Assembly: GCA_046757525.1 (NCBI GenBank)
Contig: JBHHYI010000002.1
Span: 9,326-73,325, forward strand
DNA length: 64,000 nt
Reading direction: 5' to 3'
DNA from: a bacterium
GTDB taxonomy: Bacteria > Zhuqueibacterota > Zhuqueibacteria > Oceanimicrobiales > Oceanimicrobiaceae
The notes below the pieces were generated by a model. That model saw only the letters and a program-made list of their open reading frames with translations, was not told the origin of the DNA and searched no databases. The number at the start of each line of letters is the position of its first letter. Positions within the stretch are counted from its first letter, which is position 1. The position numbers and the translations under genes are program-made. Shown here piece after piece: positions 14,916 through 57,420 of the stretch.

Positions 14916-16322
14916 ATGAAGAAAATTGCACCCATCGTTTTTTTGCTCCTTTTGTTGACACCGATGAGCCTACCTGGCCGTGGCGGCAAAAAATACGATC
15001 CGACAACTCTGGTCTTTCCGTCATTCCTGCACACCATGGGCGTCCGCAAAGCCACCAAATTGCACTTCATGATTTACACCAAAAACAAAGTCAAGGTGCG
15101 CGATCCGCAAGGCATTGCCGTGGTGCGGCTGAGAAGCTGGGATGATCCCAACAACAAAAAGGACGACGACGAAGTAACCGGCTATGGGGTTAATTCTGGT
15201 GAGAACGTTGTCGTCTACAACACGTCCATGACCGGCATCAGTATTTACGGTTTGAAACAGAAAGGAGAAAAAGCGCTCAATCACCCCATGGGAATTGCCG
15301 CCAACGCGGAAGGAGATGTTTACGTAGCCGACACAGGCAACCACCGAATTGTGCGCTTGAAGAACCCAAAAAGGAAGCTGCAGTTTGTGCGCGGAATTGG
15401 TGGCGAAGGGGCTTTGCCAGGGCAGTTCAAATCCCCGACCGGGGTTGCCCTGGATTCCAATGGCATGGTTTATGTCTGCGATACCGGCAACCACCGCATT
15501 CAAATACTGCGACCCGACGCCAGGTTACACCTGTGGTTTGGCGAGCAAGGGGTTGAAGACGGGCAACTCTGGCATCCTTCCGGCATTGCTGTCACAGACC
15601 ACGGCCAGCCCTGGTCGTTCTACAAAGATGCCTTCATCGCCTTAATCGATCTGGACCATACCAGGCTACAAAAATTTACTCTGGACGGCAAGTTTGTCAA
15701 AGCCATCCGGCTAAAAGACTTCGGCTACCAAAGCGGCCAGTTGGCGTATCTGGCCTTAGACTATTACAGCAACATCTGGGTCACGGATTTTGAAAACCAT
15801 TGCATTCACAAGTTCGACGGGAATTTGAACTATCTGACCTCTTTTGGTCGCTTTGGTAAAGACGACAAGGAATTCAACGAACCGCGGGGCATCGCTATTT
15901 ACAGAAGATTTGGCCAGGTGTTTGTAGCAGAAAAAGAATCGGCGCAATATTATTGGATCGGTACCGACGTGTTCAATTTCCGCGGTCACTGGGACGCTGA
16001 AAAAAAACTCGTGGTGCTCGACTTTTTCCTCACCGAGCCTTCTTACATCACTTTGAGCGTTAAACGGGACCAGGGTCCAACTGTCAAAGTCTTTGAAAAA
16101 GCAAAATACTTCTCCGGCCATCGACGAATTTATTTAGACGAGCACTGGAAACGGATTCCAGAGCACAGAGTCGAGAATTCAAAGGCTTACGGAAATGGCG
16201 TTTCAGACAAGCTGCAATCCATACCAGAGGGCACCTACAAACTCAAGCTGAAAGTCGAGGCCACTTATTCTTCCTACAAATACTTTTCGAAAGAAGTAAA
16301 AACCGAGCTCCGGATCGATTAG
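14916..16322 (+). CDS. Secreted NHL-repeat (six-bladed beta-propeller) protein.
   Basis: It has a signal peptide (MKKIAPIVFLLLLLTPMSLPG). NHL repeats are repeated: GDVYVADTGNHRIVRL, GMVYVCDTGNHRIQIL and IWVTDFENHCIHKF. Confidence 0.7.
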   Translation: MKKIAPIVFLLLLLTPMSLPGRGGKKYDPTTLVFPSFLHTMGVRKATKLHFMIYTKNKVKVRDPQGIAVVRLRSWDDPNNKKDDDEVTGYGVNSGENVVVYNTSMTGISIYGLKQKGEKALNHPMGIAANAEGDVYVADTGNHRIVRLKNPKRKLQFVRGIGGEGALPGQFKSPTGVALDSNGMVYVCDTGNHRIQILRPDARLHLWFGEQGVEDGQLWHPSGIAVTDHGQPWSFYKDAFIALIDLDHTRLQKFTLDGKFVKAIRLKDFGYQSGQLAYLALDYYSNIWVTDFENHCIHKFDGNLNYLTSFGRFGKDDKEFNEPRGIAIYRRFGQVFVAEKESAQYYWIGTDVFNFRGHWDAEKKLVVLDFFLTEPSYITLSVKRDQGPTVKVFEKAKYFSGHRRIYLDEHWKRIPEHRVENSKAYGNGVSDKLQSIPEGTYKLKLKVEATYSSYKYFSKEVKTELRID

Positions 16323-16435
16323 TTTGTCCGTCTTAACCCGGCAAGCCGGGAATTCGTGTGGCACGCCGATAACTTAAATTACAAGAGACGCTGCGCAATC
16401 GAGACGATTGCGTTACGTCCGACAGAGCGTTTCCT

Positions 16436-16612
16436 GAAAGCGCTGTGCGAGTCATCCCGAGTAGGTCACTGTTGTTCAAGTGACCGTATCGAGGGCATCG
16501 TCCTGAGCCCGACGAAGGGGTAACGGGCGTCGCCCTTCGATACGTTTCGACCAAAAACCGATCGGGACTACTCAGGACGACTCCCTTTAGGATCAAAGAG
16601 AATCAACTGTCG
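16436..16612 (+). repeat. Intergenic repeat element, copy A (full length, sense orientation).
   Basis: It contains GCTGTGCGAGTCATCCCGAGTAGGTCACTGttgttcaAGTGACCGTATCGAGGG plus downstream hairpins. It is 80-90% identical to 57258-57420, and its 5' module matches the reverse complement of 20569-20616. Confidence 0.8.
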
Positions 16613-16710
16613 TTCCGCTCCAAAGAAGCGTATCCTAAAAGCCGAAAGCGAAGAAGGGAACAAAATTGCATTTGTCTGGTAAAAATTAGCCTGAAACACC
16701 AACTTGACCA

Positions 16711-17127
16711 ATGAGACACCCAAACAAGACAATTTCAGTTAGCTTGATTGCACTGGTTCTGCTTCTGAATTTCCCCGCGGGCCTGGTCAATCTTTGTCAG
16801 TCCACGACTCAGGGGATGACTAAAACGACGTGTTGCCAAGGGCGAATGGTGGTGGCGCACGTGCAAGGTAAAAGCAATATCACAAGGACTTCTTGTTGCT
16901 GCAATTTCTCGACAGATGGGAAGCGGCGTTCCCCTTTGGTACACATCGCCGTAACCGACAACGGGAAAAATAGGAACAATGAGAAGGCGTTCAAGAAAAT
17001 TTCTCTGCAACCCGGGCTCACCCACAGGCAAGCGCCTGTCTCCCTTTCAAAAACAAACCTGTTGTTTCAACTCAAGGTCAACTTAGACCTAAAAATCTTC
17101 ACTCTCACCTCCTCCCTTTTGATCTGA
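16711..17127 (+). CDS. Hypothetical small secreted Cys-rich protein (weak call).
   Basis: 138 aa. It has a signal-peptide-like N-terminus (ISVSLIALVLLLNFPAGLV) and CC/CCC clusters (TTCCQG, SCCCNF). No recognisable family. Confidence 0.3.
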   Translation: MRHPNKTISVSLIALVLLLNFPAGLVNLCQSTTQGMTKTTCCQGRMVVAHVQGKSNITRTSCCCNFSTDGKRRSPLVHIAVTDNGKNRNNEKAFKKISLQPGLTHRQAPVSLSKTNLLFQLKVNLDLKIFTLTSSLLI

Positions 17128-19009: not shown

Positions 19010-20416
19010 ATGCTAGATCTTATGATTCTGAAGAAACAACGTCGGTCTGTTGTCCTGGCTCTGACGGTCTTGCTTCTAACTGGGGCTTGTGGCAAGCGTG
19101 AGCATGAGCAGACGGCTGCTTCCGGTAAGGAGCCAGCAAAAGCCGAGGCATCGGCGCCGCAGATGAGCGCAGACCATGAGCAAGCTGGCACGATGAAAAT
19201 GGACATGAAAATGAAAAAAAGCACACCATCACAGGACTCGGCGGACAAGAAAGGGAAAAAGATTCTGTATTGGCGTGCGCCCATGGACCCCACCTACATT
19301 TCGGACCAACCGGGCAAGTCGCCCATGGGGATGGATCTGATTCCGGTTTACGAAGGCGAAGAAGTCGCTTCCGGCTCCACAATTTCAATCGATCCGGTAA
19401 CCGTGCAAAACATGGGCGTCCGTACTGCACGGGTGAGGCGTCAGCCATTCAGCCGTGTTATCAGAACTGTTGGACATATTGACTATGACGAGGAAACATT
19501 GTACAACATCAACCTCAAGTTTCATGGCTGGATAGAGAAGCTCTATGTGGACCGCACCGGAGAGCCGGTAAGGAAAGGGCAGGCGCTGCTCAAGGTTTAC
19601 TCTCCGGAGCTGGTTTCGACGCAGGAAGAATATCTCCTGGCTTACAAGAACCGGCAGCAATTGGCCAATAGCTCGTTTGCCCAGGTGAGCAAGGGGGCTG
19701 AAAGTCTGCTGGCGTCGACGCGTCAAAGACTGCAGTATTGGGACATTTCCGACGAGCAGATTGCAAAGCTGGAAAAGACCGGGCAGGTCAACAAAACATT
19801 GACCATCTACTCGCCGGCGGACGGAGTCGTGGTGCACAAGAATGCCGTCGAGGGAATGTACGCCATGGAAGGTGTCAACCTGTTTCGCATCGCTGACCTC
19901 ACAAAGATATGGGTCTATGCTCACATCTTCGAGTACGAACTGCCCTGGATTAAGGTTGGGCAACAGGTAACCATGGAATTGCCCTATGTTCCCGGGCGAA
20001 AATTTACAGGAAGGGTGGATTACCTGTATCCTTATCTGAACGCCAAAACCAGAGACGTAAAGATTCGCATCATATTTAACAATCCAACGCTGGAGCTGAA
20101 GCCACAAATGTATGCCAACATAACGATTGAATCCAGCGCTGGCGACAACGTGTTGGTGGTCCCGGGTGAAGCAGTCATTCGCTCTGGTGTGCGCAACCTG
20201 GTTTTTCTCGATCTGGGAAATGGAAAATTTCGCCCGCAGGAAGTCGTGTTGGGCCCTGAAGGCGACGACGGCCTGGTGGAAATCGTTTCGGGCTTAGAGG
20301 AAGGCCAGGGGATTGTCACCAGCGCACAATTCATGTTGGACTCTGAAAGTCGTTTACGCGAAGCGATTCAAAAGATGCTGGAAGTCAAAAAAGCTGCTCA
20401 ACAAAAAATGGAATAA
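19010..20416 (+). CDS. cusB: Efflux RND periplasmic adaptor subunit (CusB/CzcB-like).
   Basis: 468 aa. The N-terminus is Met-rich (TMKMDMKMKK). A degenerate heavy-metal-binding domain reads YWRAPMDPTYISDQPGKSPMGMDLIPV; the canonical form is YxCPMHP...GKCPKCGMDL. HlyD-like barrel-sandwich and beta-barrel domains follow. Confidence 0.8.
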   Translation: MLDLMILKKQRRSVVLALTVLLLTGACGKREHEQTAASGKEPAKAEASAPQMSADHEQAGTMKMDMKMKKSTPSQDSADKKGKKILYWRAPMDPTYISDQPGKSPMGMDLIPVYEGEEVASGSTISIDPVTVQNMGVRTARVRRQPFSRVIRTVGHIDYDEETLYNINLKFHGWIEKLYVDRTGEPVRKGQALLKVYSPELVSTQEEYLLAYKNRQQLANSSFAQVSKGAESLLASTRQRLQYWDISDEQIAKLEKTGQVNKTLTIYSPADGVVVHKNAVEGMYAMEGVNLFRIADLTKIWVYAHIFEYELPWIKVGQQVTMELPYVPGRKFTGRVDYLYPYLNAKTRDVKIRIIFNNPTLELKPQMYANITIESSAGDNVLVVPGEAVIRSGVRNLVFLDLGNGKFRPQEVVLGPEGDDGLVEIVSGLEEGQGIVTSAQFMLDSESRLREAIQKMLEVKKAAQQKME

Positions 20417-20475
20417 GGGAAATAATATGCTCTCGGGAAACGCTCCTTGTTCGTCTTTTACGAATAAAACGACCC

Positions 20476-20620
20476 ACTTTGGCTGTAGGGTGCTATTTGG
20501 CACGTGGGGCTACAAGGGACGCTGGAGCGTCCTGTGTTCGTCCCCACGCAGAGCATGGGAACGAGGGCTACGGTCACTTGAGAAGCAGCGACCTACTCGG
20601 GATGACTCGCACAGTGCTTC
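20476..20620 (-). repeat. Intergenic repeat element, copy B, in inverted orientation inside the cus operon.
   Basis: The reverse complement of 20569-20616 is CACTGTGCGAGTCATCCCGAGTAGGTCGCTGCTTCTCAAGTGACCGTA, which matches the conserved 5' module of copies A and C. The downstream part holds different GC-rich hairpins (GGACGCTccAGCGTCC). Confidence 0.75.
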
Positions 20621-20778
20621 TGAGACACCGGGCTTTACTAAACTTCGGAAGGTTAGTAAAGCTGAAAATGAGTTCCTTCCATTCAGAACTGCGATAGCCG
20701 TGAAATTCAAAAAAGCGTTTAGATTGAAAAATTCATGAACAACGAAGCGCGAATTTACTGAAGAATAGAGGACTGAAA

Positions 20779-23700
20779 ATGTTAGAAAAGGTGATAGAAT
20801 GGTCAGTCAACAACCGGTTCATGGTGATATTGGTCACATTGTTTGTCATTCTGATCGGCGTAATAGCCATGCTGCGAACACCGGTTGACGCCATCCCGGA
20901 TTTGTCTGATGTGCAAGTGATCGTTTTTACGGAATTTCCAGGTCAGGCACCGCAGGTAGTGGAAGACCAGGTGACCTATCCGCTGACCACGTCCATGCTG
21001 GCAGTGCCGCGCGCCAAGGTGGTGAGGGGATACTCTTTTTTCGGATTTTCCATGGTTTACATCATTTTTGAGGACAACACCGATCTCTACTGGGCGCGCA
21101 GCCGGGTGTTGGAATATCTCAATTACGTTTCAAAGAGACTGCCGCCAGGGGTCACCCCCACGCTCGGACCGGACGCCACCGGCGTGGGCTGGGTGTATGA
21201 ATACGCCTTAAAGAGCGATCGCCATGATTTGGCGCAACTGCGCTCCATTCAGGACTGGCTGCTGCGCTACGAATTGACCACGGTGCCGGGTGTGGCTGAA
21301 GTGGCCAGCATCGGAGGCTATGTCAAGCAGTACCAGGTCGAGGTCGATCCCAACAAATTGCTGATATATGACATTCCCCTGCAAAAAATAAAAATGGCCA
21401 TCAAGAATGCCAACAACGACGTGGGCGGCCGCCTGGTGGAAATGGCGGAAACCGAATTCATGGTCAGAGGGCTGGGGTACATTAAGTCGGTAAGTGACCT
21501 GGAAAAGGTTACGCTGGGAGTGGACAATCGCGGGGTGCCCATTACGCTGAAACAAGTCGCCCATGTACAGCTCGGGCCTGAATTGCGTCGTGGACTTTCG
21601 GAACTGAATGGCGAAGGCGAAGTGGTGGGCGGCATCATCGTCATGCGTTACGGAGAAAATGCCTTGAAGACCATCGACGGCGTGAAGGCCAAGCTCGAAC
21701 AACTTAAGAAGAGCTTGCCCAAAGGGGTAGAAATCGTACCGGTGTACGACCGCTCCGGTTTGATCGAACGCGCTATTGAGAATCTGCGAGGCAAACTTGT
21801 CGAAGAAAGTATTGTGGTGGCGCTGGTGTGTATAATTTTTCTGCTGCACTTTCGCAGCGCCTTCGTGGCGATTTTCACGCTACCGGTCGGCATTCTGATC
21901 GCCTTCATGATCATGCACCGGCAGGGCATTAACGCCAACATCATGTCGCTGGGGGGCATCGCCATCGCCATCGGCGCCATGGTGGACGCTGCCATCGTCA
22001 TGATCGAGAATGCGCATAAACATATCGAGCACGATACCGGCAAGAATCACTGGCAGATCATCATCGACGCTTCCAAGGAAGTGGGCCCGGCTCTCTTCTA
22101 TTCCCTGCTCATCATCACCATCTCGTTTGTGCCGGTTTTTACCTTACAGGCGCAAGAGGGCAGATTGTTCAAACCTCTTGCATTTACCAAAACCTATGCC
22201 ATGGCGGCCTCTGCCTTGCTGGCCATCACCATCGTGCCGGTGCTCATGGGCTACTTTATCCGTGGTAAGATCATGCCGGAGGACAAAAACCCGGTCAACC
22301 GCTTCTTGATCTGGATCTACCTGCCGGTGATCAACCTGGTGCTTCGCTTCAAGAAGACCGCGCTGCTGGTAGCGACAGCGATTCTGCTGCTCAGCCTGTG
22401 GCCGCTGTCGAAGCTTGGTTCGGAATTCATGCCGCCCCTATACGAAGGCGATCTGCTTTACATGCCGACCACCGATCCTGGCATAAGCATTACCAAAGCC
22501 AAGCAGCTCTTACAGCAGACCGACAAGATCATCAAGAACCAGTTTCCCAATGAAGTACACCACGTTTTCGGCAAGGTTGGTCGTGCGGAAACGGCCACCG
22601 ACCCGGCACCGCTTTCCATGATGGAAACCACCATCATGCTGAAGCCAGAAGATGAGTGGAGTCCCGGGATGACACCGAAGAAGCTGGTCGATTCTTTGAA
22701 CGCGGCCATTCATTTTCCCGGCCTCACCAATGCCTGGACCATGCCAATCAAAACGCGAATCGATATGCTGGCCACAGGCATTAAGACGCCGGTGGGCATT
22801 AAGCTCATGGGGGACGATCTCTCGGTGCTGGCTGATCTGGCGCAACAGATCGCCACGGTGCTCACCAACGTACCGGGTACGCTCAGTGTGTTTCCCGAAA
22901 AGGCGGTCGGCGGCAATTATCTGGATTTTAAAATCAAACGCGATGAAACCATGCGGTATGGCCTTAATGTGGGGGATGTTCAAGATGTCATCAAGAGTGC
23001 CATCGGCGGCATGAACGTCACACAAACGGTCGAAGGGCTTGAACGCTACCCGGTCAACGTTCGTTACAGCCGCGAGCTTCGGGACAACATCGGGGCCTTG
23101 CAGCGCGTGCTCATCTCCACGCCCACGGGCGCTCAGATTCCCATCACCCAGGTGGCCGACATTCAAATCAAGAAGGGGCCGCCGGTCATCAAGAGCGAAA
23201 ACTCGCGGCGCTCTGCGTGGATCTATGTCGATTTAAGCAACATCGATGTTGGCACCTATGTGGCCAGAGCGAAAAAAGTGGTCGAAGAACGGATCAATCT
23301 GCCCACCGGTTATACCATGTTGTGGAGCGGGCAATACGAATACATGCAGCGCGCCAAAGAACGAATGAAATTAGTGGTTCCTGTCACATTGGTGATTATC
23401 TTTGTACTCCTGTTCCTCAATTTCAAGAATGTGGTTGAAAGCGTCGTCGTCATGTTTTCACTTCCGTTTGCACTGATAGGCGGCATCTGGCTCATGTATC
23501 TGCTGAATTATGACTTTAGCGTGGCCGTCGGGGTCGGTTTCATTGCGCTCGCAGGGGTAACTGCTGAAATTGGGGTCATCATGCTGACCTACCTGGATCG
23601 AGCCTATGAGCAGCGAATCAGCAGCGGGAAAATGCAGCACAAATCGGACTTGATCCAATCGATTCTCGAAGGGACCAGCATGCGCTTACGACCCATTTTC

Positions 23701-23904
23701 ATGACCGTGACCGCCATTATCGCAGGACTTCTGCCCATCATGTGGGGGCATGGCACCGGTTCGGATGTCATGAAGCGGATCGCAGCGCCCATGGTTGGCG
23801 GAATGATGTCCTCGACCGTCTTAACCCTGCTCGTGATTCCGGCCATTTACTTCATCTGGAAAAGCTGGGAGAATCGCAAACGGTGGGTGGCGGAACAGAA
23901 GTAA
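20779..23904 (+). CDS. cusA: Heavy-metal efflux RND permease of the CusA/CzcA family.
   Basis: 1041 aa. The N-terminus MLEKVIEWSVNNRFMVILVTLFVILIGVIAM...AIPDLSDVQVIVFTEFPGQAPQVVEDQVTYPL is characteristic of HME-RND pumps, which have 12 TM helices. Confidence 0.9.
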   Translation: MLEKVIEWSVNNRFMVILVTLFVILIGVIAMLRTPVDAIPDLSDVQVIVFTEFPGQAPQVVEDQVTYPLTTSMLAVPRAKVVRGYSFFGFSMVYIIFEDNTDLYWARSRVLEYLNYVSKRLPPGVTPTLGPDATGVGWVYEYALKSDRHDLAQLRSIQDWLLRYELTTVPGVAEVASIGGYVKQYQVEVDPNKLLIYDIPLQKIKMAIKNANNDVGGRLVEMAETEFMVRGLGYIKSVSDLEKVTLGVDNRGVPITLKQVAHVQLGPELRRGLSELNGEGEVVGGIIVMRYGENALKTIDGVKAKLEQLKKSLPKGVEIVPVYDRSGLIERAIENLRGKLVEESIVVALVCIIFLLHFRSAFVAIFTLPVGILIAFMIMHRQGINANIMSLGGIAIAIGAMVDAAIVMIENAHKHIEHDTGKNHWQIIIDASKEVGPALFYSLLIITISFVPVFTLQAQEGRLFKPLAFTKTYAMAASALLAITIVPVLMGYFIRGKIMPEDKNPVNRFLIWIYLPVINLVLRFKKTALLVATAILLLSLWPLSKLGSEFMPPLYEGDLLYMPTTDPGISITKAKQLLQQTDKIIKNQFPNEVHHVFGKVGRAETATDPAPLSMMETTIMLKPEDEWSPGMTPKKLVDSLNAAIHFPGLTNAWTMPIKTRIDMLATGIKTPVGIKLMGDDLSVLADLAQQIATVLTNVPGTLSVFPEKAVGGNYLDFKIKRDETMRYGLNVGDVQDVIKSAIGGMNVTQTVEGLERYPVNVRYSRELRDNIGALQRVLISTPTGAQIPITQVADIQIKKGPPVIKSENSRRSAWIYVDLSNIDVGTYVARAKKVVEERINLPTGYTMLWSGQYEYMQRAKERMKLVVPVTLVIIFVLLFLNFKNVVESVVVMFSLPFALIGGIWLMYLLNYDFSVAVGVGFIALAGVTAEIGVIMLTYLDRAYEQRISSGKMQHKSDLIQSILEGTSMRLRPIFMTVTAIIAGLLPIMWGHGTGSDVMKRIAAPMVGGMMSSTVLTLLVIPAIYFIWKSWENRKRWVAEQK

Positions 23905-36177: not shown

Positions 36178-37668
36178 TTAATCTATTTCAATTTCTGTGT
36201 GTTCATTACCATCATAACTTAATAGCGTTTTCACCTCTTCGATTATGGTTTCCAGGTGCACCGGTCGCGTCCAAATTTTGAACAGGTTTTTCAGAGTATC
36301 CCTGGCTTCGTTGTCTTGAAGGTCGACACCTTCATGTTGGTGAACAAGGTACAGTTCACCGCGATTAAGATAATTTGCATCCACGACATAAATGAACGGT
36401 TGTCCAAAATTTGTCAAGCTGAATAGTAATTTTTCCTTGACTTGTTTGAAATCTCTATCCGTAATTTCGTATAGATTGTTTCGATCGTTGTAATTATATA
36501 CGAACAATTTTTGTTCTCTGCAAAAATCCGGTGTCAAAAAAGCGTCGATGAACATCAGGTCGTTATAGAGTTTACGCACTTCAAAGATCTTTTCGGTGCC
36601 TAAACCTGTGTCTCGATTCCAGTTTTTCTTGGTTAGCCAATCGTCGCATTCGTCATACTCTTTGCCGAATTTCCCTTTGTTCCAACGGTCTTCGATGTCC
36701 CGAAAAAGCTCCACACCTAACTTGTAGGGATTCAACCTGCCCGTGCCGGTTAGCAAAGTTCCTGAGTGGTGGTCGGCGTAATCAATTACTTCAGAGTCCG
36801 ACAGACATTTTTCGGTCATGATTTTGGAATGCCAGTAGGTAGCCCAGCCTTCGTTCATGATCTTTGTCTGTCCCTGGGGCGCGAAGTAGTAGGCTTCTTC
36901 ACGGACGATTGAAAGAATGTCCCGCTGCCACTTCTCCAAGGGTGCGTTCTCGATCAAAAACTTAAGAATGTCGCGTTCTGGCTCCTCGGGATGCTTATGT
37001 TTCTGCTCTTTTTCGCGTTCGTCCGCCAATTGTCTTTGTTGCTCCAAAAACTCCGCTGGATTAATGTACGCGTCCATGTACGACTTGCTTTTCAGCTTCA
37101 ACGGTGTGCTGGTTTCGGGTGCTTCCTCCCCCACAGCCAGCATATCATCGTCCCTATTGCGCTTTATGAATTCTGAGTGCAGATCGATCAAATTCTCCAG
37201 TGACAGGCAGGTGTCAATGAAGTCCTCGACCACTTCAACACTGCGACTTTCGACGTAACGACGAATTTGGGTGGCATGATTAGCCATTTCATCCATCATT
37301 TTTCTGTTTGTATTCTGGAAACAAAGGTTGTTCTTAAAGAAATCGCAGTGGGCGTGCACATGCGCCATGACCAGCTTCTGGTCGACCAAGTTGTTGCTCT
37401 TCATCAAATAAGCATAGCAGGGATCGTTGTTGATCACCAACTCGTAGATTTTCTGCAAGCCGTAGGAATAGCCCTTGGAAAGCTCCTCGTATTCCATGCC
37501 AAAGCGCCAATGCGGATACCTGGTAGGAAATCCACCATAGCTGGCCACTTCATTCAACTCATCAAACTCGACGACCTCAAAGATGGTCTCAAAAAAGTCT
37601 AAGCCGAAATCCGAGGCGTAACCTTTGATTTCCTCTTGAATATCGACGAGATGTTTAGGTAGATTCAT
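36178..37668 (-). CDS. spoVR: SpoVR/YcgB-family protein.
   Basis: 496 aa. The N-terminus MNLPKHLVDIQEEIKGYASDFGLDFFETIFEVVEFDELNEVASYGGFPTRYPHWRFGMEYE is strongly SpoVR-like. Confidence 0.85.
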   Translation of the reverse strand: MNLPKHLVDIQEEIKGYASDFGLDFFETIFEVVEFDELNEVASYGGFPTRYPHWRFGMEYEELSKGYSYGLQKIYELVINNDPCYAYLMKSNNLVDQKLVMAHVHAHCDFFKNNLCFQNTNRKMMDEMANHATQIRRYVESRSVEVVEDFIDTCLSLENLIDLHSEFIKRNRDDDMLAVGEEAPETSTPLKLKSKSYMDAYINPAEFLEQQRQLADEREKEQKHKHPEEPERDILKFLIENAPLEKWQRDILSIVREEAYYFAPQGQTKIMNEGWATYWHSKIMTEKCLSDSEVIDYADHHSGTLLTGTGRLNPYKLGVELFRDIEDRWNKGKFGKEYDECDDWLTKKNWNRDTGLGTEKIFEVRKLYNDLMFIDAFLTPDFCREQKLFVYNYNDRNNLYEITDRDFKQVKEKLLFSLTNFGQPFIYVVDANYLNRGELYLVHQHEGVDLQDNEARDTLKNLFKIWTRPVHLETIIEEVKTLLSYDGNEHTEIEID

Positions 37669-37690
37669 CGTGATCCTTACGGCTTAACTG

Positions 37691-38794
37691 TTATTTGCCC
37701 TTGCCCAAGAACTGCTTAATAGAATCGTAAATGCCCTCTTTGTCGAGTATTTCAGAAAAAACGATCTTGTCTTCTTCGTGAAAGTAGTCTTCCAAGTCCT
37801 GAATGAACTGCCCGCTGCCGTAGGGACTTTCAACCTGACCGTAACAAAATAGATTCGATTTTGGAATCAAATGTGTCTCGAGTATTGCGATGCACTCGTC
37901 CGTATCGATTTCGCCCCAATTATCGCCATCGGAAAAATGGAAGAGATAGATGTTCCACTCAGATGGACTGTAAGACTCACCGATCAGTCTGTTGGCTAAC
38001 TTGTACGCAGAAGAAATAATGGTGCCGCCGCTTTCCCGAGTGTGATAGAAAGTGTCCTTGTCGACGATGCGCGCCACCGCATCATGGATGATGTAGCGAG
38101 TCTCAATATTTTTGTACTGGTATCTCAACCAGGTGTCTATCCAAAACGCCTCAATTCGAACAATCTCTTTTTGCTCTTCACCCATGGAACCCGAAACATC
38201 CATCATGTAGATGATCACGGCGTTGCTCTCCGGCTCCTGCGTAACTTTCCAGGATCTATATCTTCGATCTTCGCGAATGGGGATGATGACGGGGTTGTCC
38301 GGGTTGTAGGTCTGCATTATGAGTTGCCGCTTCAAAGCCTGCTTGTACGTTCTCTTAAAATGCTTTAGAGAGTCAGGCCCGGTTTGACTAATACCGGTGT
38401 ATTTATCCTTGTTGTCAGTGATGTTTTTCTTCCCCTTAGGCTCGACGTTGGGCAATTCCAATTCCTCGCCCAACATTTGCGCAAGTTCATCCAGCGTAAT
38501 GTCAACTTCCAGGATGTGTTCGCCAGGAGCATCCCCGGCACCTGGGCCCGGTTGCAACTCACCACGTCCCAGCGGGGTTCCGATGGCACCTTCGCCTTGA
38601 CCCACGCCACCCGCCTTCTTGGTGCCGTAACGAAAATGCGGAATACGAATCTGCGGCAAAGGAATGCTGACGAAATCTTTGCCCTTCTTTCCGATCAACT
38701 CCCCGCGTGTAATATACTTTCTGAGATCCTTTTTGACCTTACCACGGATGATTTGCCGAAAACGATTCTGATCCTTGTCAATTCGTTTAACCAT
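37691..38794 (-). CDS. DUF444 / YeaH / YhbH-family protein with a vWA-like domain.
   Basis: 367 aa. The N-terminus reads [53 protein letters not shown], and the C-terminal region is vWA-like. Confidence 0.85.
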
Positions 38795-38810
38795 TGTTTC
38801 AGTACTTCTT

Positions 38811-40928
38811 TTATTTCAGTACTTCTTTGACATCGCCGCGCGCAAATATGCTGGCAACATAGTTCAACACATCTGTGGCACAAATGTCGCAATAACCATA
38901 ATACTTGATCATGCGCGACTTGACCACGTCGATCTTTTCTTGCGTTTCCTTGTCAACCACACTGGAAATCAGTGTGGTCAGCTTAATGGAATCCTTTTGG
39001 TCTTCGAACAGTTTGAGCTCCAGCGCCTTCTGCAAGCGTTCGTTGGACCGATAGTCGAAAGACCTGCCTTCCAAGGCCAGGGCACCGATGTAATTCATGA
39101 TCTCTCGGCGGAAATCGTCTTTTCGGCTTTCCGGGATGTCGATTTTTTCTTCGATGGAACGCATGAGTCTCTCGTCCGGTTCTTCGTCTGCACCGGTGTA
39201 CTTGTTTCTGACTTTCTCCTTTTGGGTGTAAGCCTTAACGTGATCGATGTAGTTGCCGCAAAGCCGCTTCAGCGCTTCCTCATCTGCGGCGATCGCTCTC
39301 TGAACCTCGGACTTGACGATATCCTCAAATTCCTCTTTAACAACAGAAAGCAATTCCCTGAATCTCTTTCTCTGTTCCTCGCTCGTTATCAAAGAATGAT
39401 GATAGAGGCCCTCTTCCAACTCATTCAAAACCATGAACGGATTGACACAGGCCCCACCTTCATCGCTTACCAGAGCATTGGATATCTTGTCCTGAATATA
39501 TCTCGGAGAAATACCCTCCATGCCTTCACGCGCAGCCTCAAACCGCAGCTCCTTGATGTTATCTTCGGTAAATCCGGGGAGAGTTTTGCCGTCATAAAGC
39601 TTGAGTTTTTGCAACAAAGTAAGCTGAGCTTTCTTGGGTCCTTCCAATCGGGTCAAAACAGCCCAAATTGAGGCCATTTCGATGGTATGAGGTGCAATGT
39701 GCTTACCCTTGATGCGATCCATGTTATAATCCTTTTCGTAAATCTTCACCTCATCAGAAATCTTGGTAATATACGGTATGTCAATTTTCACCGTTCGATC
39801 CCGCAAAGCTTCCATGAATTCATTGGATTGCAGCTTCCTATATTCCGGCTCATTGGTATGCCCAATGATAACCTCGTCGATATCTGTTTGCGCAAATTTT
39901 TTCGGTTTTATCTTGTGCTCTTGAGAAGCACCCAACAAATCATAAAGGAAGGCCACGTCCAATTTTAACACCTCGATGAATTCCACCAGGCCCCGATTGG
40001 CTATGTTCAATTCGCCATCAAAATTAAACGCACGCGGATCAGAGTCCGAACCATATTCGGCTATCTTTCTGTAGTTGATGTCGCCAGTCAGTTCCGTAGA
40101 ATCCTGGTTCTTCTCGTCCTTTGGTTGGAACGTTCCAATTCCAATTCGGTCTTTCTCAGATAAGATCAATCTGCGCACCTGAACATCGGCTATAATTTTA
40201 GACCAATCGCCCTGGTACTGGTGACTTTTTTCCTGGAACGTTTGACGGCAAAAGGGACACAATTCACCTTCTATGGTAATCTGGGTCTCGTCCGGATTCC
40301 CCCGGTTAAGCTCATGCATCGCCTTCGTGCGAAATTCCTCAGGAATCAAATGCAGGGGTTCTTCGTGCATGGGACAATCGGAGTATTGGATACCATCCGG
40401 TGTTTCTAACTTCCAGGAATAGGTGTACAGCGCGCCTTCCTGCGTTTTCGAATACGCTTCAATGCCCTTTTTCAGCAATCGCACGATGGTACTCTTGGCG
40501 CTGCCTACCGGGCCATGCAAAAGAAACACGCGCTTTTCGGTACCATAACCCTTTGCCGCCGACTTGATCAAATTGACAATTTTCATGATGGGCCGTTCTA
40601 AACCAAACACTGCGTCGCGGCCGTTGTCAATGGGATCGTCGAAGAAGTTGTATTTAATCAGCTTTTCCTTGTATTCCTGATATTCTTCAGTGCCATAGGA
40701 AAGAATCATGTCGTAGAGCCGTTGGAAAGCGGTGCGAGCCACTTTAGGATTCTTGCGAACGATTTCCAGATATTGCGGAAACGTGCCAACCCAATTCAAC
40801 TCCTTGTATTTGTCAACGTCCTGCAGGCCCTGAATTAAAGAAATAATGCTCGATTCATTCGATGACTTGTCTGCTTTTTTTATGTTGTCCGTGGTGTCCA
40901 TAACGATAAACCTCCAATAGAGTAGCAA
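38811..40928 (-). CDS. prkA: PrkA/YeaG-family serine protein kinase.
   Basis: 705 aa. It has an N-terminal PrkA AAA domain with a Walker A motif ([12 protein letters not shown]) and a C-terminal PrkA kinase-like domain. Confidence 0.9.
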
Positions 40929-49592: not shown

Positions 49593-51068
49593 CTAATTAA
49601 GACCGTTTGCAGGTTGCTGAGCTTTTTTGTACAATCCAATGCTGAGATTGCTAAACTGTCCTTTCAAAACTCGGACGTCCTTGAGAGTCTTGGTGTAATA
49701 TCCCGGGCTGATGATTCTCAAAGTATACCTGCCCGGATTGACGATGCGATAAAATCCTCCGGTTTCAGCATCGGTTTTTCTATTATGTGTGTGATCGGAT
49801 GAAAACTCCTCGACTTTTATTTCCGCTAACAACGGGGCTTTGGTGAAGGCATCGATGACATGGCCGCGAATGCCCGTGTCTAACGTTCTATCGAGCAGGT
49901 AAAAGGCACCTTTCATGTTTTCGTTGATGATGCTCGAAATGTCTTGTTCTGCCGGAAAATACTCGGTTGCAACTTCGACAATGTAATCCAGCACGCTTAA
50001 GTAGCCATACATCCAGATCGAACTCTGTCCCACGCGACCATTCAGCGGCAAAATAGAATAGTTGCCACGTCCAGAAAGCCGCCTTATTCTCGACGCCATC
50101 TTGCTTGCGATGTCTACAATGAGGTCCAAATCGGGCGGCTTCTTGTAATTGCCCCAGGGAAACAGGATGGATTCGCCATAGCTATGATAGGAGATTCCAA
50201 TAACGAAATTCTCTCGTATCGCCAAGTCGCGCACCGCCTGAGTTTCTTTTTCCGAAAACGGACCCTTGCCCCGGTAGAACCAACTGCTGGGCTTACCATC
50301 GCCGCCATCCTTCCAATTATAATCATAATTTCTATTTAAGTCAACCCCATCTATCATGGGATCAAAAACGCCGTCACCGTTGTTGTCCCGGAGATTCTTG
50401 CGCCACCACGGAAAGCTCAAATGGTTGTCGAGAATGTACTTATACCCATCGGGATTGACCAAGGGGACAAACCAGATTTCAATAGCATTCACCCATCTTG
50501 TAATTTTAGGGTCTTTTCCGTATCTCTCACAGAGTCTCTTCATCAATTGCAAACAAATCTTGGCGCCGATTGGTTCACGTGCGTGATGCACGCCCGTAAA
50601 CAATATCCTGGGCTCGTCTTCTCTTTTGACAGCATTATCCGATATCTTCACGGCCCATATAGGAAGCCCCAGTGCTGTCGTAGTGCCGATTTGGTCTATC
50701 TTTACGATGTCGGGGTATTCTTCTTGCAGGCTCTTGATGTCAGACTCGATAGAACTCAAGGGCCGATAGGCTTTCGGAACGTTTGGCTTGGCCGGTCGAA
50801 ATGGCGCGCTAACTTTGCGCAGAGCGAACGTTGTTTGTCCGTGGAGTTGGGGCCGCGCAAATAGTGCGTACGTCCCCTGCGCTTTCGTTTTCTTTCTTAG
50901 CTTGGAGTCGGATCGCGAGGAATCTTTTGGGGTCGGTCTGAGAATGGGGAGACTTTCTTGAGAGCGTGTCCCCTTGTTGCCAAAAATCACCAGCACGATA
51001 AAGCCAAAAAATACGGCAGAAATGCTAAGAACAAAACGCTTCAAAGTTAGCAGCTCGTAGTTTCGCAT
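49593..51068 (-). CDS. M14-family zinc carboxypeptidase with a C-terminal carboxypeptidase-regulatory-like domain.
   Basis: 491 aa. It carries a zinc-binding HxxE (GVHHAREPIG), ISYHSYGESILFPWG and a C-terminal CarbopepD_reg-like beta domain. Confidence 0.75.
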   Translation of the reverse strand: MRNYELLTLKRFVLSISAVFFGFIVLVIFGNKGTRSQESLPILRPTPKDSSRSDSKLRKKTKAQGTYALFARPQLHGQTTFALRKVSAPFRPAKPNVPKAYRPLSSIESDIKSLQEEYPDIVKIDQIGTTTALGLPIWAVKISDNAVKREDEPRILFTGVHHAREPIGAKICLQLMKRLCERYGKDPKITRWVNAIEIWFVPLVNPDGYKYILDNHLSFPWWRKNLRDNNGDGVFDPMIDGVDLNRNYDYNWKDGGDGKPSSWFYRGKGPFSEKETQAVRDLAIRENFVIGISYHSYGESILFPWGNYKKPPDLDLIVDIASKMASRIRRLSGRGNYSILPLNGRVGQSSIWMYGYLSVLDYIVEVATEYFPAEQDISSIINENMKGAFYLLDRTLDTGIRGHVIDAFTKAPLLAEIKVEEFSSDHTHNRKTDAETGGFYRIVNPGRYTLRIISPGYYTKTLKDVRVLKGQFSNLSIGLYKKAQQPANGLN

Positions 51069-51172
51069 GACTGTGAGGTAAGAAAATTAAACTGTTATAG
51101 ATTCTAACAACGCAAAAAGTTCAGATTATTTCTTAAATACAATATTCGACGAATCTCACGAACGCAGCAATG

Positions 51173-52693
51173 TCACAAAGCTCGCAAAAATTGGACAGAA
51201 TCCTGGGCAAAATTGGCCAAGGGAGCCCAATATATTCCAAGCAAGATAGTGGGGACAACCAGGACGACAAGCAGGGTAACGAAAAAAGGAGATATTGCAA
51301 CAGGTGTTAGTTTTTCTTCCAGACTTTTATCTAAGAACATAGCCTTGATGATACGGGCATAGTAATACAGGGAAACAACGCTGTTAATGATACCCACAAC
51401 CGCTAACCAATAATAACTGGTACCCGCCTTGATTACGGCGGCAAAAAGGTAAAACTTCCCGACAAAACCGGCCGTTGGAGGCAAACCAGTAAGCGAAAAG
51501 AGAAAAACCCCCATGGCCACAGCGGGAATCGGGGCTCGCCAGGCCAATCCCTTGTAGTCCTCGATACTCTCACTACCGACCAGTTCCTGGTTGATGATGA
51601 CGACTAAGAAAGCGCCAATATTCATTAAATAGTACACGACCAAATAGAACATGGTCGCATGAATCCCCTGTTCGGAAAGAACCACGGTACCCATCAAAGC
51701 ATAGCCGGCGTGGGCAATGCTCGAATAGGCCAACAGTCGTTTCACGTTGTTCTGAACGATGGCAACGAGATTCCCCAGTGTCATGGTAGCAGCGGAAATC
51801 ACGGCCAAAAGCTGCGCCCAGTCAAGACCCGACAGCACAGACCAATCGCCAACGTGGCCGCTGGAAGTCCCGGAGGTCAGAGCCACATTGAAAAAGCGAA
51901 TCAGGAGCGCAAAGCCAGCCGCTTTGGGTCCCACAGAAAGAAAAGCTGTGATCGGCGTGGGCGCGCCCTCGTAGACATCCGGCGTCCAGAAATGAAACGG
52001 AACCGAAGCGATCTTATATCCAAATCCACCCAAAATCAAAAGCACCGAAACGAACAACGTCAACTTGTCCGGGCTGGAAGTGGCCAGAACCGTTTGGATT
52101 TCATAAATGTTGAGCGTTCCGGTCAGTCCGTATAGCAGGGAAATGCCGTATAACATCAACCCTGATGAAAAGGCACCGTAAATCGTGTACTTCAGGCCAG
52201 CCTCGCTGGACCGCCGCCGCGTCTTCAAATAAGTCGCCAGGATGAACGACGTGATGCTTACCAACTCGATGGATATATAAATCGTGATTAAATTGGTGGC
52301 TGAGGCCATCAAAAACATGCCCAGTGTGGTGGCAATCAATAAGGTAAAATATTCCCCAACGGGCCGGCCAGAGAGCTCCAAAGAACCGATAGACAAAAAT
52401 ATCACGATGAAAGTGGATGCCAGAAAAAGCACCTTAAAGAACAAAGCAAATGGATCCACAACCAACATGTCATTGAAAAGCGAATAGCTGCCCAGTTTGT
52501 ATTGAGCCAACACCGTAACGAACGTCGCCACAATTCCGAGCAAGGCTACCATCGAGGTCCACGGAGACTTCTCTTTCTTGAGAATTATGTCGGCTATGAC
52601 CAGAATTACGATGACTCCGGTCAGAAGGATCTCGGGGATAAAATAGCTTAGGCTTGCAATGTTATTTTGTAACGCAGAAGAATAATCCATCAT
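51173..52693 (-). CDS. nuoN: NADH-quinone oxidoreductase subunit N.
   Basis: 506 aa polytopic antiporter-like subunit, last in the nuo cluster. Confidence 0.85.
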   Translation of the reverse strand: MMDYSSALQNNIASLSYFIPEILLTGVIVILVIADIILKKEKSPWTSMVALLGIVATFVTVLAQYKLGSYSLFNDMLVVDPFALFFKVLFLASTFIVIFLSIGSLELSGRPVGEYFTLLIATTLGMFLMASATNLITIYISIELVSITSFILATYLKTRRRSSEAGLKYTIYGAFSSGLMLYGISLLYGLTGTLNIYEIQTVLATSSPDKLTLFVSVLLILGGFGYKIASVPFHFWTPDVYEGAPTPITAFLSVGPKAAGFALLIRFFNVALTSGTSSGHVGDWSVLSGLDWAQLLAVISAATMTLGNLVAIVQNNVKRLLAYSSIAHAGYALMGTVVLSEQGIHATMFYLVVYYLMNIGAFLVVIINQELVGSESIEDYKGLAWRAPIPAVAMGVFLFSLTGLPPTAGFVGKFYLFAAVIKAGTSYYWLAVVGIINSVVSLYYYARIIKAMFLDKSLEEKLTPVAISPFFVTLLVVLVVPTILLGIYWAPLANFAQDSVQFLRAL

Positions 52694-52702
52694 GATATGC
52701 TT

Positions 52703-54274
52703 TTATTGTAGACCGAAAAAGGTCGTGGTTCCCGCGGCAGCAACAACGTGCACTAAATTGTTTAGAGAGACCTTGATCAGGTCCAGCAACGGGGCCGGGT
52801 AAACCCCCAGGAAAATGACGATAACAGCTAATGGCACCAGGGTGAATAATTCCCTGCCATTTATCTCTGGCAGATCGGCATATTTGGGGTTTAGTTTGCC
52901 AAAAAACATCCTTTGCAGAGACCACAAAAAATAGCCGGCTGTGACCACGATCCCCAGGGTTGAAACGATGGTAATCACTTTTAGATTAAACAGCTCAGAA
53001 CCGAAGGCACCGAGAAATGAAAAGGCCTCACTGATGAAACTGGACAAACCCGGCAGCCCCAGGCCGCCGAAGAATGCCAGACTAAATATGCCAGCATAAA
53101 TGGGCACCTTCACCGCCAGACCGCCGAAACCATCGATGTCGCGATGATGGGCGCGATCGTAGATTACGCCCACCAGGAGAAAGAGCATGGCGGTCACCGT
53201 GCCATGATTGAACATTTGCATCACCGCGCCGTTCATCCCCAGCGGCGTCAGGGCAGACATGCCTAACAAGACGATGCCCATGTGACTGATGCTGGAGTAG
53301 GCCACCATCTTCTTCAGGTCCTTTTGCCCCAGGGCACAAAAAGCCCCGTAGAGAATGTTGATCAGACCCAGGATGGCCAGGCCATAGGCACAGTATTGGT
53401 ATTTCATGGCATCGGGGAGCATGGGGAAGCTAATGCGGAGCATGCCGTAAGTGCCCATCTTCAACAGCACGCCTGCGAGAATCACGCTAATTGCCGTCGG
53501 GGCTTCCACGTGAGCATCCGGAAGCCAGGTATGAAAAGGAAACACGGGTACCTTAATGGCAAAACCAACAAACAAGGCCACATAAAGGAGCAAACGAATA
53601 TTGAAGTTGTGCAACACCCCGGTGTGATTGGCCTGGTTCATCATGTGGAGCATGTTAAAAGTATGTCCACCGGTAGCCGGGTCCTGGACGTTGAAATACA
53701 GCACCAACATGACCAGCAACATGAACACACTGCCCAACAGCGTGTACAAGAAAAACTTTATGGCAGCATACGGACCTCCCCTCACCATGCCATCCGGATC
53801 CACTCGCGAAGGACTGCCCCAAACCCCGATAAGAAAGTACATGGGCAGCAACATGATCTCCCAGAAAATATAGAACAAGAAGAAATCCAACGCACAAAAC
53901 ACCCCCATCATACCGGTGTCGAGCAGCAAGAACATAGCAAAGTAGCCCTTGACGCCCCGGTCGATGCCCCAGGAGGCAAAAATGCAGATGAAGGAGAGCA
54001 GCGCCGTCAACAAAACCATGGGAATGCTGAGTCCGTCGATTCCCATAAAATATTCTATATTAAACGAAGGAATCCATTTGTAGTGCTCAATAAACTGAAA
54101 ACTGATACTTGTGGTATCAAAGTGCAGGTAAAGCCAGGCAGCGATAACCACCTGGATGCCCGTGAACACGGCCGCGATTGACCTGATCAGATTCTTGTTT
54201 GATTTTGGAGCCAACAGAATGAGAAAAATCCCCACAATTGGCATGAAGGTGATCAGCGTTAATGCTTTGTCCAT
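52703..54274 (-). CDS. nuoM: NADH-quinone oxidoreductase subunit M.
   Basis: 523 aa antiporter-like subunit. Confidence 0.85.
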   Translation of the reverse strand: MDKALTLITFMPIVGIFLILLAPKSNKNLIRSIAAVFTGIQVVIAAWLYLHFDTTSISFQFIEHYKWIPSFNIEYFMGIDGLSIPMVLLTALLSFICIFASWGIDRGVKGYFAMFLLLDTGMMGVFCALDFFLFYIFWEIMLLPMYFLIGVWGSPSRVDPDGMVRGGPYAAIKFFLYTLLGSVFMLLVMLVLYFNVQDPATGGHTFNMLHMMNQANHTGVLHNFNIRLLLYVALFVGFAIKVPVFPFHTWLPDAHVEAPTAISVILAGVLLKMGTYGMLRISFPMLPDAMKYQYCAYGLAILGLINILYGAFCALGQKDLKKMVAYSSISHMGIVLLGMSALTPLGMNGAVMQMFNHGTVTAMLFLLVGVIYDRAHHRDIDGFGGLAVKVPIYAGIFSLAFFGGLGLPGLSSFISEAFSFLGAFGSELFNLKVITIVSTLGIVVTAGYFLWSLQRMFFGKLNPKYADLPEINGRELFTLVPLAVIVIFLGVYPAPLLDLIKVSLNNLVHVVAAAGTTTFFGLQ

Positions 54275-54308
54275 TTAATTGAGTCCCTCTCGTTATAGAA
54301 ATTTACGA

Positions 54309-56300: not shown

Positions 56301-56346
56301 CTTCTGTTTCTATCTTTCTGTTTAGGTCTCCTTTGGCGCATCGCGT

Positions 56347-56658
56347 CTATCGTGCAAGTGTATCCGCTTCGTCTAAATCAATGGAATGGAAACGCTGATA
56401 AATGTTTAAAACGATCGCCAGGGCTACTGCGGCCCCGGCCGCGGCGGTTATGATGATAAATATCCCAAAAATTTGGCCGTCCAAATCGGTGTCTGCAAAA
56501 CGGGCAAAGGCAACAAAGTTAATGTTGGCAGCATTCAGGATCAGCTCAATGCCCATCAACACGGTGATGGCATTTTTCTTGGTGATGACACTCAACAAAC
56601 CCAGACAGAACAGGATTGCGCTTACAGTCAAATAATGGTCCAAACCGATGTGTGACAT
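56347..56658 (-). CDS. nuoK: NADH-quinone oxidoreductase subunit K.
   Basis: 103 aa with three TM helices. It carries LILNAANINFVAF. Confidence 0.85.
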   Translation of the reverse strand: MSHIGLDHYLTVSAILFCLGLLSVITKKNAITVLMGIELILNAANINFVAFARFADTDLDGQIFGIFIIITAAAGAAVALAIVLNIYQRFHSIDLDEADTLAR

Positions 56659-56660
56659 CT

Positions 56661-57158: not shown

Positions 57159-57190
57159 ATTCCTTTGCTTGCTTTCATTCAATCAAGTTA

Positions 57191-57420
57191 CTAAAAGCTC
57201 TTTGCACGCGTTGCGTGCTTTTACATGCAAGAAACGACCGAAGCGTTCCTTAACAGCATTGTGCAAGTCATCCCGAGTAGGTCACTGCTTCTCAAGTGAC
57301 CGTATCGAGGGGTGACGGCCGTCGCCCTTCGATGTGTCCCGACCCAAAAGCGGTCGGGACTACTCAGGGCGACTACCTTTTTGCTCAAGCAAAAACAACT
57401 GTCATTCAATCCCGGTCGTT
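57191..57420 (+). repeat. Intergenic repeat element, copy C, composite, antisense between nuoH and nuoJ.
   Basis: 57258-57311 reads TTGTGCAAGTCATCCCGAGTAGGTCACTGcttctcaAGTGACCGTATCGAGGGG. Downstream is a perfect hairpin GTCCCGACC-caaaagc-GGTCGGGAC. Its 5' module (57191-57245) is also found at 60545-60590. Confidence 0.8.

Follow-up and report, generated by a model that had tools for sequence, protein, structure and literature searches.

Why does one hairpin-rich sequence recur in three intergenic spacers within 64 kb of a single bacterial genome, and what kind of element is it? We studied this question in a window of 64,000 nt (the whole stretch of DNA analysed, from contig JBHHYI010000002.1, with position 1 as its first letter), where copy A lies downstream of an NHL-repeat gene, copy B between cusB-like and cusA-like genes and copy C between nuoH and nuoJ. 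The three loci are a real family of non-coding, hairpin-rich intergenic DNA repeats. The repeat family is new and its kind is familiar, i.e., it is not a new kind of element: the loci are probably copies of one palindromic repeat, non-coding and non-autonomous, of the repetitive extragenic palindromic (REP) dimer or bacterial interspersed mosaic element (BIME) type, which behaves like a miniature inverted-repeat transposable element (MITE) and has spread in the spacers of one lineage of the Fibrobacterota-Chlorobiota-Bacteroidota (FCB) group. A preliminary description of the window had named REP/BIME-like or MITE-like repeats, mRNA stability or attenuation structures and a small RNA family as options; the gene contexts that it gave, with two copies inside operons, were as stated.

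The core word GTCATCCCGAGTAGGTCRCTG (21 nt) occurred exactly at 16451-16471 (+), 20586-20606 (-) and 57267-57287 (+). Allowing up to 3 mismatches added no fourth match in the window, and the word was absent from 100 dinucleotide shuffles, a chance expectation of 0 against the 3 found. Copies A and C were homologous over about 190 nt (16426-16615 and 57242-57407), as one block of 70 nt (86% identity) and one of 100 nt (81%), with a 24-nt indel (extra in A) between them. Copy B shared 50-51 nt with A and C at 90-94% identity (20569-20619), beyond which it consisted of unrelated hairpins. The three copies with their core of about 50 nt, the A-C alignment with its indel and the reduction of B to the core had all been claimed in the preliminary description and were borne out here, as was the peptide that the copies share in six-frame translation, which read GHLNNSDLLGMTRT in A, GHLRSSDLLGMTRT in B and GHLRSSDLLGMTCT in C. 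This peptide is spurious. Its profile, used to look for more copies among 5.8 billion proteins, gave 123 word-sharing candidates and none at E<=10. The earlier positions also held, and the extent did not, as the repeat continues upstream into two modules (M1 and M0, see below) and downstream into a 3' tail. The parts of the three copies, with P1 to P4 as the predicted helices of the core, were the following:

16449-16583, + strand: four-way-junction core of copy A (model R1, 138.5 bits; RNA fold)
16449-16463 with 16569-16583, + strand: helix P1 of copy A
16464-16485, + strand: helix P2 of copy A
16486-16543, + strand: helix P3 of copy A, holding the 24-nt insert
16544-16568, + strand: helix P4 of copy A
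16584-16615, + strand: 3' tail of copy A, made up of a small hairpin rich in AT and AACTGTC (16605-16611), which is conserved; from the alignments
20569-20608, - strand: copy B, truncated to the 5' arm of P1, P2 and CCGTA (GAGTCATCCCGAGTAGGTCGCTGCTTCTCAAGTGACCGTA), from the 90-94% match over 50-51 nt
20425-20568, - strand: GC-rich hairpins fused to copy B and ending in the flank motif (fold -75.5 kcal/mol, z -3.84)
57265-57375, + strand, antiparallel to nuo transcription: four-way-junction core of copy C (model R1, 122.1 bits; folds)
57376-57484, + strand: tail of copy C (AACTGTC at 57397-57403) and two more hairpins, reaching the nuoH stop codon, from the empty sites in relatives

Copy B had no 3' partner for P1, folded as P2 alone and scored only 31.7 bits with model R1 (20525-20608). 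No second copy of its fused hairpins (20425-20568) was found in any sequence of the data compared.

The relatives of the host showed how copy C came to its place. The nearest NuoH proteins, at best 85% identical, belonged to metagenome-assembled genomes (MAGs) that carry the labels candidate division KSB1, Calditrichota or 'bacterium', which places the host as an uncultured FCB-group bacterium near candidate division KSB1/Calditrichota. In the window the spacer between nuoH (57485-58549, - strand) and nuoJ measured 329 nt (57156-57484, with the nuoJ ATG at 57155, a start taken as called on an identical Logan contig). In six relatives with NuoH identities of 74-85% it measured 4 nt (L004), 4 nt (L005), 10 nt (L009), 66 nt (L089), 41 nt (L090) and 34 nt (L091), the last three having the same gene order as the window. 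Because these six relatives have 4-66 nt where the window has 329 nt, the element is an insertion in the nuoH-nuoJ spacer; the whole spacer of copy C, 57156-57484, was missing from them. In the window a small hairpin begins 4 nt past the nuoH stop codon, and an AAGGA sequence, new there, precedes the nuoJ ATG.

The search of relatives that the preliminary description had proposed thus returned these empty sites, and with them copies in one metagenome and a diverged copy in a further MAG. The exact core had no match in 185,579 species-representative genomes, and among 241 million metagenome records it was found on three contigs of one sample (L001, L002 and L003; JGI metagenome Ga0114931), which carried five extra copies. 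Scans with the exact core gave no match in viral contigs, and distant blastn none in a plasmid collection; the single viral match of a second core word (L086, of high GC content) was a chance one, rejected by model R1. That model detected no copy in the 33 kb scanned from the three nearest relatives; among 80 FCB-group genomes, 1.3 Mb of sequence surrounding nuoH yielded the diverged copy L016 alone. No copy was seen either in the 4.7 kb past the window end, reached via the Yip1-domain protein. Further copies in the source genome are indicated by indirect evidence: short-read Logan contigs (SRR29324609 and SRR29324611) that match the window exactly break off within copy C, at P4 and P2, and three others (L084, L087 and L088) end at 60583-60599, on the border of M0 and M1. 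Since multi-copy repeats break de Bruijn assemblies, contig ends inside the element imply more genomic copies.

The metagenome copies also gave a view of copy-number change. The PaaK-amidase loci of L001 and L002 are orthologous and come from two species, whose PaaK proteins are 83% identical; the spacer holds one long copy in L002 (1981-2321) and three copies in L001 (5715-6200). In L001 a second copy, with a 43-nt 5' module of its own, interrupts the orthologous copy after CGTATAGAGAGG, and a third copy lies upstream; this 43-nt module (TTGCAGAATATYGTWTTGCTC..TTTATTAACCAGTACCTTGT) precedes two of the L001 copies. As one copy is shared and the totals are 1 against 3, one copy is older than the split of the two species and the others were gained later. 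The nesting of one L001 copy in another means that copies insert into, or recombine with, one another.

The insertion and the contexts of the copies bear on the reading that the repeat is a host-selected cis-regulatory element of the mRNA, i.e., an intercistronic stabiliser, attenuator or processing site tuning nuoA-H against nuoJ-N and cusB against cusA. Two copies do lie inside operons and are necessarily cotranscribed, the structure is very stable in both orientations (see below), the small hairpin 4 nt past the nuoH stop codon would suit such a role, and REP/BIME, ERIC and Correia elements are known to affect mRNA stability and processing (for REPs, see PMC3733652). Against it, the six relatives with the same nuo gene order lack the element, and the same core recurs in unrelated contexts. 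All nine core copies were intergenic, on the 3' side of the NHL gene, at PaaK/amidase and before a porin-like gene among other places. Their orientation relative to transcription is not fixed either: A and the copies of L001, L002, L003 and L016 run along with the flanking genes, and B, C and a block of M0 and M1 run against them. Copy B, moreover, is a fragment. We therefore hold host selection for a regulatory role to be quite improbable.

The secondary structure of the core was considered next to its sequence. The core is an inverted doublet of a unit of about 50 nt, GTCAYCCYGAGTAG-[hairpin]-CGTATCGARGGGYGAC. Its outer helix P1 pairs a 5' arm GAGTCATCCCGAGTA with a 3' arm TACTCAGGRCGACTC (arms of 15-16 bp, with two fixed mismatches, A.C and C.A). 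P2 is the GGTCACT/AGTGACC hairpin that had been noticed before, which is real: a 7-bp stem, GGTCACT-8 nt-AGTGACC, or GTAG-GTCACT.. when written with its tag. P3 is a spacer stem with complementary ends (GTATCGAGGGG...CCCTTCGATAC), of 35-120 nt, which tolerates inserts (24 nt in A, about 80 nt in both L002 and L001c), and P4 is a 9-bp stem with an A-rich loop of 7 nt (..CGACC-AAAA-GGTCG-CTAC). The folds of A, C, L003, L002 and L016 predicted the same four-way junction of P1-P4, with zero unpaired bases at the junction; in L001a, P3 and P4 were collapsed. Fold z-scores of -4.9 to -9.5 were strongly non-random. The RNA energies of the sense and antisense strands were -67.7 and -67.9 kcal/mol for A, -66.7 and -61.1 for C, -68.9 and -72.0 for L003, and -75.2 and -77.5 for L016. 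Folds with DNA parameters were similar on both strands, except that one strand of C folded unit by unit and not as a junction, so in these models the doublet can form a single four-way junction or leave its two units folded apart.

The helices are kept through compensatory changes, as shown by an alignment of five copies in which 88% of the cells were paired and 17 of the 45 pairs had changed on both sides; none of 500 shuffles reached the observed values, and slid controls gave at most 4 double-changed pairs. P2 alone had three unrelated paired sequences (GGTCACT/AGTGACC, TTCCGAC/GTCGGGA and GTTCCGC/GCGGAAC). A hand count on the A/C/L003 alignment gave 7 changes tolerated as G.U on one strand against 5 tolerated on the other (G.U versus A.C), no strand being favoured, and no sign that selection acts on one transcript strand only. 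The preliminary description had placed copies B and C antisense to their mRNAs. C is indeed opposite to nuo and B is inverted, and yet little hangs on the distinction: as a quasi-palindrome, the core folds equally well whichever strand is read.

The most diverged copy, L016:5483-5598, comes from the Bacteroidota-labelled MAG La3_concoct.179 (NuoH 65% identical) and scored 59.8 bits with model R1 (E ~1e-14). It folded into the same four helices (-79.6 kcal/mol, z -9.5). Its P1 (GTCATGCTGAGCGCA/TGCGCTCAGCATGAC) pairs perfectly, its P2 is unrelated in sequence to that of the window, its P3 retains TCGAAG/CTTCGA and its P4 (TCTCGACC-AAAAAGC-GGTCGAGA) is nearly identical to that of copy C; in place of GTAG it has CGCA (CGCA/TGCG). 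As this diverged copy retains the four helices, the architecture is older and wider than the exact sequence. A bolder proposal would be that the conserved object is the four-way junction itself, a cruciform resembling a Holliday junction, rather than any sequence. The junction was seen in the KSB1-like MAG, in a second organism group (one metagenome) and, in diverged form, in the Bacteroidota MAG (its helices rebuilt, with the P4 hairpin CGACC-AAAAAGC-GGTCG kept). We regard this proposal as a long shot; if true, it would describe a structure-defined mobile or recombinogenic element of the FCB group, read by a structure-specific enzyme.

Several smaller hairpins were observed around the diverged copy and in other contigs. 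A compact hairpin, GTCATTCTGAGG...CGAAGAATC, lies at L016:7352, 1.8 kb beyond the L016 copy, and short intergenic hairpins GTCATTCTGAGCGGAGCGAAGAATGAC occur in L076, L065 and L016. Others, of the form GTCATTCYGAGCG..CGAAGRATGAC, were found at L076:5499 (-), L065:17813 (+) and L065:7177 (+); they also give spurious peptides, e.g., MLRFARND, and resemble the outer arms of the window's repeat unit. As a tentative lead, the four-way element may be akin to the GTCAYYCYGAGCG...GAAGRRTGAC hairpins of L016, L065 and L076. Short compact hairpins of this sort are widespread across many phyla, and a full-text literature search for the variants returned no relevant paper.

A structure of this kind could also be the functional product of one strand, belonging to an independently transcribed small-RNA family or a mobile ribozyme-like RNA. 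The non-random folds (z -4.9 to -9.5), compensatory changes in every helix, a P4 stem and A-rich loop conserved even in the distant L016, several G.U pairs on the 'sense' strand and, in our own reading, a TTGCAG-N17-TTTATT-like module ahead of two L001 copies would agree with that. The comparison with Rfam which the preliminary description had suggested was carried out and matched no family: at gathering score the window and six loci had 0 matches, and a search of copy A and L016 at E<=10 returned chance-level matches only, far below gathering scores and without meaning. Readings of the sequence as hammerhead, twister, group II domain 5 or Y-RNA-like were given up for want of an Rfam match. 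No sigma-70-like promoter was found upstream of any copy by a scan that is blind to Bacteroidota-type promoters, nor is the core followed by a terminator. The fold is as good on the opposite strand, and the A.C and G.U changes show no strand preference; B is truncated and unable to form the junction, and the copies are nested, rearranged and of mixed orientation. The small-RNA option of the preliminary description, lacking an Rfam match, a promoter-like site and a strand bias in G.U pairs, was accordingly not upheld, and we judge it highly improbable.

Conserved sequence was not confined to the core. The modules and flanking motifs that surround it in the window were located as follows:

16393-16433, + strand: module M1, a hairpin GCAATCGAGACGATTGC then TTACG..CAG.GCGTTTC, directly upstream of copy A; second copy at 60594-60633
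57187-57239, + strand: module M0 (GTTACTAAAAGCTCTTTGCACGCGTTGCGTGCTTTTACATGCAAGAAACGACC), upstream of copy C; second copy at 60541-60593
57242-57264, + strand: remnant of the M1 end (AGCGTTCCTTAACAGCATTGTGC), linking M0 with the copy C core (C 57242-57311 is 86% identical to A 16426-16495)
60541-60633, + strand: block of M0 and M1 without a core, fourth member of the mosaic family, adjoining the stop codon of the Yip1-domain gene
16426-16441, + strand: flank motif AGCGTTTCCTGAAAGC, left of copy A (motif search)
16627-16642, + strand: second, direct-repeat copy of the flank motif (AGCGTATCCTAAAAGC), right of copy A (motif search)
20429-20444, - strand: flank motif, right of copy B (motif search)

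The two M1 sequences aligned locally over 40 nt at 82% identity with a score of 43, against best scores of 24 in 1000 shuffles and 25 in 1857 random window segments. The M0 pair was 83% identical over 53 nt by repeat finding and 86.7% over 45 nt by blastn. The block at 60541-60633 was absent from the list of the preliminary description, whose word 'modular' was nevertheless well chosen: M0, M1, the tail and the core occur in varying combinations, namely M1, core and tail in A; M0, M1 remnant, core and tail in C; a core fragment with other hairpins in B; and M0 with M1 alone at 60541-60633. The copies are therefore varied combinations of a few short motifs, as in BIMEs. A tail RACTGT stands about 24 nt past P1 in the alignments of A, C, L001a and L003, and the 5' modules of L001 and L002 are different from M0 and M1. 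The flank motif (16 nt) had 3 matches with up to 3 mismatches against 0.84 expected, which is weak in statistical terms; degenerate versions were noted by eye, flanking C on either side and B on the left. AGCGTTTCCTGAAAGC may be a part of the element or a duplicated target, and it is not adjacent to P1.

These ends matter for the reading of the repeat as a classical MITE, a deletion derivative of a DDE insertion sequence whose terminal inverted repeats would be the P1 arms GAGTCATCCCGAGTAG / CTACTCAGGRCGACTC and which the parent transposase would move by cut-and-paste. Inverted arms of 15-16 bp with two fixed mismatches, a size of 110-190 bp, the intergenic location, the empty sites in relatives and the variable copy number are all in its favour. 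Nevertheless, P1 is not bordered by a direct repeat in A, C, L001a or L003, conserved sequence lies outside it (the tail RACTGTC; M1/TGTGC upstream), and the copies are mosaic and nested, not unit-length; a transposase is absent from the window and from L001-L003, and the exact cores are unmatched in plasmids and viral contigs. Since conserved sequence continues beyond it, P1 is not the physical end of the element, and as no target duplication abuts it either, a DDE-type MITE becomes less likely. Terminal inverted repeats at the physical ends together with a target-site duplication, the marks of a MITE, were thus not found, and we consider such an origin rather unlikely. Three other classes of structured DNA were rejected because their defining neighbours are lacking and their motifs did not fit: integron attC sites (integrase and cassette array absent), the ends of IS200/IS605 elements, or palindrome-associated transposable elements (PATE; TnpA and TnpB absent), and retron msr/msd (reverse transcriptase absent).

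The features that told against the other readings point to a REP/BIME-type repeat. Of the options in the preliminary description, the REP/BIME-like or MITE-like one is favoured by the empty sites, the copy-number change, the mosaics, the strand symmetry and the mixed orientation. REPs are imperfect palindromes of 20-40 bp that carry a tag, GTAG or CGTC, at one end, and units paired in inverted orientation lie 1-100 bp from each other. According to Di Nocera et al. (PMC3733652), REPs tagged with GTAG are palindromes with stems of 6-13 bp and a terminal GTAG; they often form inverted pairs with the tags outside ('HH'), often heterodimers, separated by spacers of 20-100 bp whose ends are sometimes complementary, and such pairs can collapse into a single large fold. 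In our repeat, P2 and P4 are short palindromes with stems in the 6-13 bp range, inverted with respect to each other with the tags outside, around the P3 spacer of 35-120 nt. GAGTAG stands before P2 in A, B, C, L001a, L002 and L003 (CTTAG in L001b, CCAAT in L001c, CGCA in L016), and CTAC follows P4 in A, C, L002, L003 and L001c. Like REP dimers, REPINs (REP doublets forming hairpins) and the BIMEs of E. coli, the element has short imperfect palindromes, in most copies with GTAG ahead on their own strand, arranged as an inverted 'HH' heterodimer with a structured spacer of variable length; it is extragenic, also within operons, combines few motifs as a mosaic, and one copy persists at an orthologous locus across species (L001/L002). 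Unlike REP dimers, it has hairpins P2 and P4 that are unrelated in sequence, it forms a four-way junction without unpaired junction bases where theirs is one long hairpin, its diverged copy L016 has lost GTAG, and its lineage has no known RAYT (REP-associated tyrosine transposase).

Other families offer partial parallels. Enterobacterial repetitive intergenic consensus (ERIC) sequences, or intergenic repeat units (IRU), and the Correia elements of Neisseria (NEMIS) are likewise imperfect palindromes of 100-170 bp, intergenic or intra-operon in either orientation, cotranscribed with their neighbours, and they have size variants by insertion at a fixed point, which here is P3. They share zero sequence similarity with our repeat and form one long hairpin, whereas ours forms a four-way junction; Correia elements, in addition, have TA target duplications and defined inverted termini, none of which were seen here. 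The BOX elements of Streptococcus pneumoniae resemble it as modular short boxes of variable number and order, intergenic and stably structured. They differ in their modules and host phylum, and in a tandem design (boxA-boxB(n)-boxC) in place of an inverted doublet.

Under the REP/BIME-type reading, copies would be spread by an enzyme acting in trans that recognises folded single-stranded hairpins. A transposase of the HUH/Y1 family resembling the REP-associated tyrosine transposases (RAYT) suggests itself as the candidate, given the GTAG ahead of P2 and the CTAC behind P4. The mosaics would arise via recombination between copies. In nuo or cus mRNA the structure of about -65 kcal/mol would, in either orientation, be a barrier to exonucleases or a site of RNase processing and would uncouple neighbouring cistrons. 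By analogy with the known families, a stable structure of 330-360 nt in the nuo and cus transcripts could block 3'-5' decay, offer RNase III or RNase E sites and abolish the translational coupling of nuoH and nuoJ, between which relatives have 4-10 nt. Such effects would be by-products of a selfish or neutral element and not the reason for its existence.

Several points weigh against this reading. No transposase of any kind was found in the window or in L001-L003, and GTAG may be incidental, as it is not kept in L001c or L016. Extra arms of 11-12 bp outside GTAG and a conserved 3' tail set the repeat apart from REP dimers. The covariation counts come from five sequences in a model-fitted alignment, with P1 of L016 at a 2-nt register shift, and most of the double changes in P1 stem from L016. 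The core copies available were 9 on 6 contigs, the source genome being represented by 64 kb with three cores and one M0-M1 block. No near-identical pair of filled and empty sequences, which would show the insertion junctions and any target duplication, was found; and the effects on mRNA, plausible as they are, we infer entirely by analogy. The core works like a REP dimer or BIME, and we leave its formal membership undecided because the outer arms and tail, the loss of GTAG in L016 and a RAYT that is a candidate only do not settle the fit.

REP/BIME, REPIN, ERIC and Correia repeats are well studied in Proteobacteria and Neisseria; to our knowledge, dispersed palindromic repeats are almost undescribed in the candidate phyla of the FCB group. 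The present family is real, lineage-restricted and of moderate interest for mobile-element biology in candidate phyla, where it represents the same repeat life-style with the unusual feature of a junction without unpaired bases. Discovery of a cognate RAYT-like gene would turn the lineage into an independent test of the REPIN-RAYT model; should none be found, the mode of spread would be an open question. In practical terms, the element accounts for spacers of 330-360 nt in otherwise tightly packed operons, for recurrent spurious ORFs (..YGHL.NSDLLGMT..), which concern annotation, and for breaks in short-read assemblies.

The surroundings of the copies were inspected for other features. Copy A follows the NHL-repeat gene at 14916-16322, and copy B lies between OEP/CusB-like genes (CusB-like, HlyD_D23; 19010-20416) and a CusA-like gene (ACR_tran; 20779-23904), where together with its fused hairpins it occupies most of the 362-nt spacer. 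Beside it, at 20632-20662 in the same spacer, stands a near-perfect palindrome, GCTTTACTAAACTTCGGAAGGTTAGTAAAGC. Between copy A and the OEP-CusB-CusA genes, the ORF 16711-17127 encodes a Cys-rich protein of 138 aa with a hydrophobic N-terminus and zero Pfam or NCBIfam family matches. We dropped the idea that this gene is borne by the element; the small protein probably belongs to the metal-efflux locus, of which it may be a metal-binding accessory.

The nuo cluster (49593-59038, - strand) consists of nuoA-nuoH-nuoJ-nuoK-nuoL-nuoM-nuoN, i.e., membrane-arm subunits only, without nuoB-G and with no nuoI between nuoH and nuoJ. This order is a trait of the lineage and was not caused by the insertion, because L089-L091 have the same order. 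Between convergent or tandem genes, a clean hairpin AAAAAGGACACGAG-CTTGA-CTCGTGTCCTTT at 60460-60495 has the look of a common bidirectional terminator and does not belong to the repeat family. At the GC-rich start of the window, a 66-nt direct repeat of 73% identity (1616-1681 and 1820-1885, 204 nt apart) is probably an internal repeat of a minus-strand gene that runs off the window. Finally, a PrkA / DUF444 / SpoVR trio at 36178-40928 (- strand) makes up the conserved 'yeaG-yeaH-ycgB'-type stress module, here in a KSB1-like genome.

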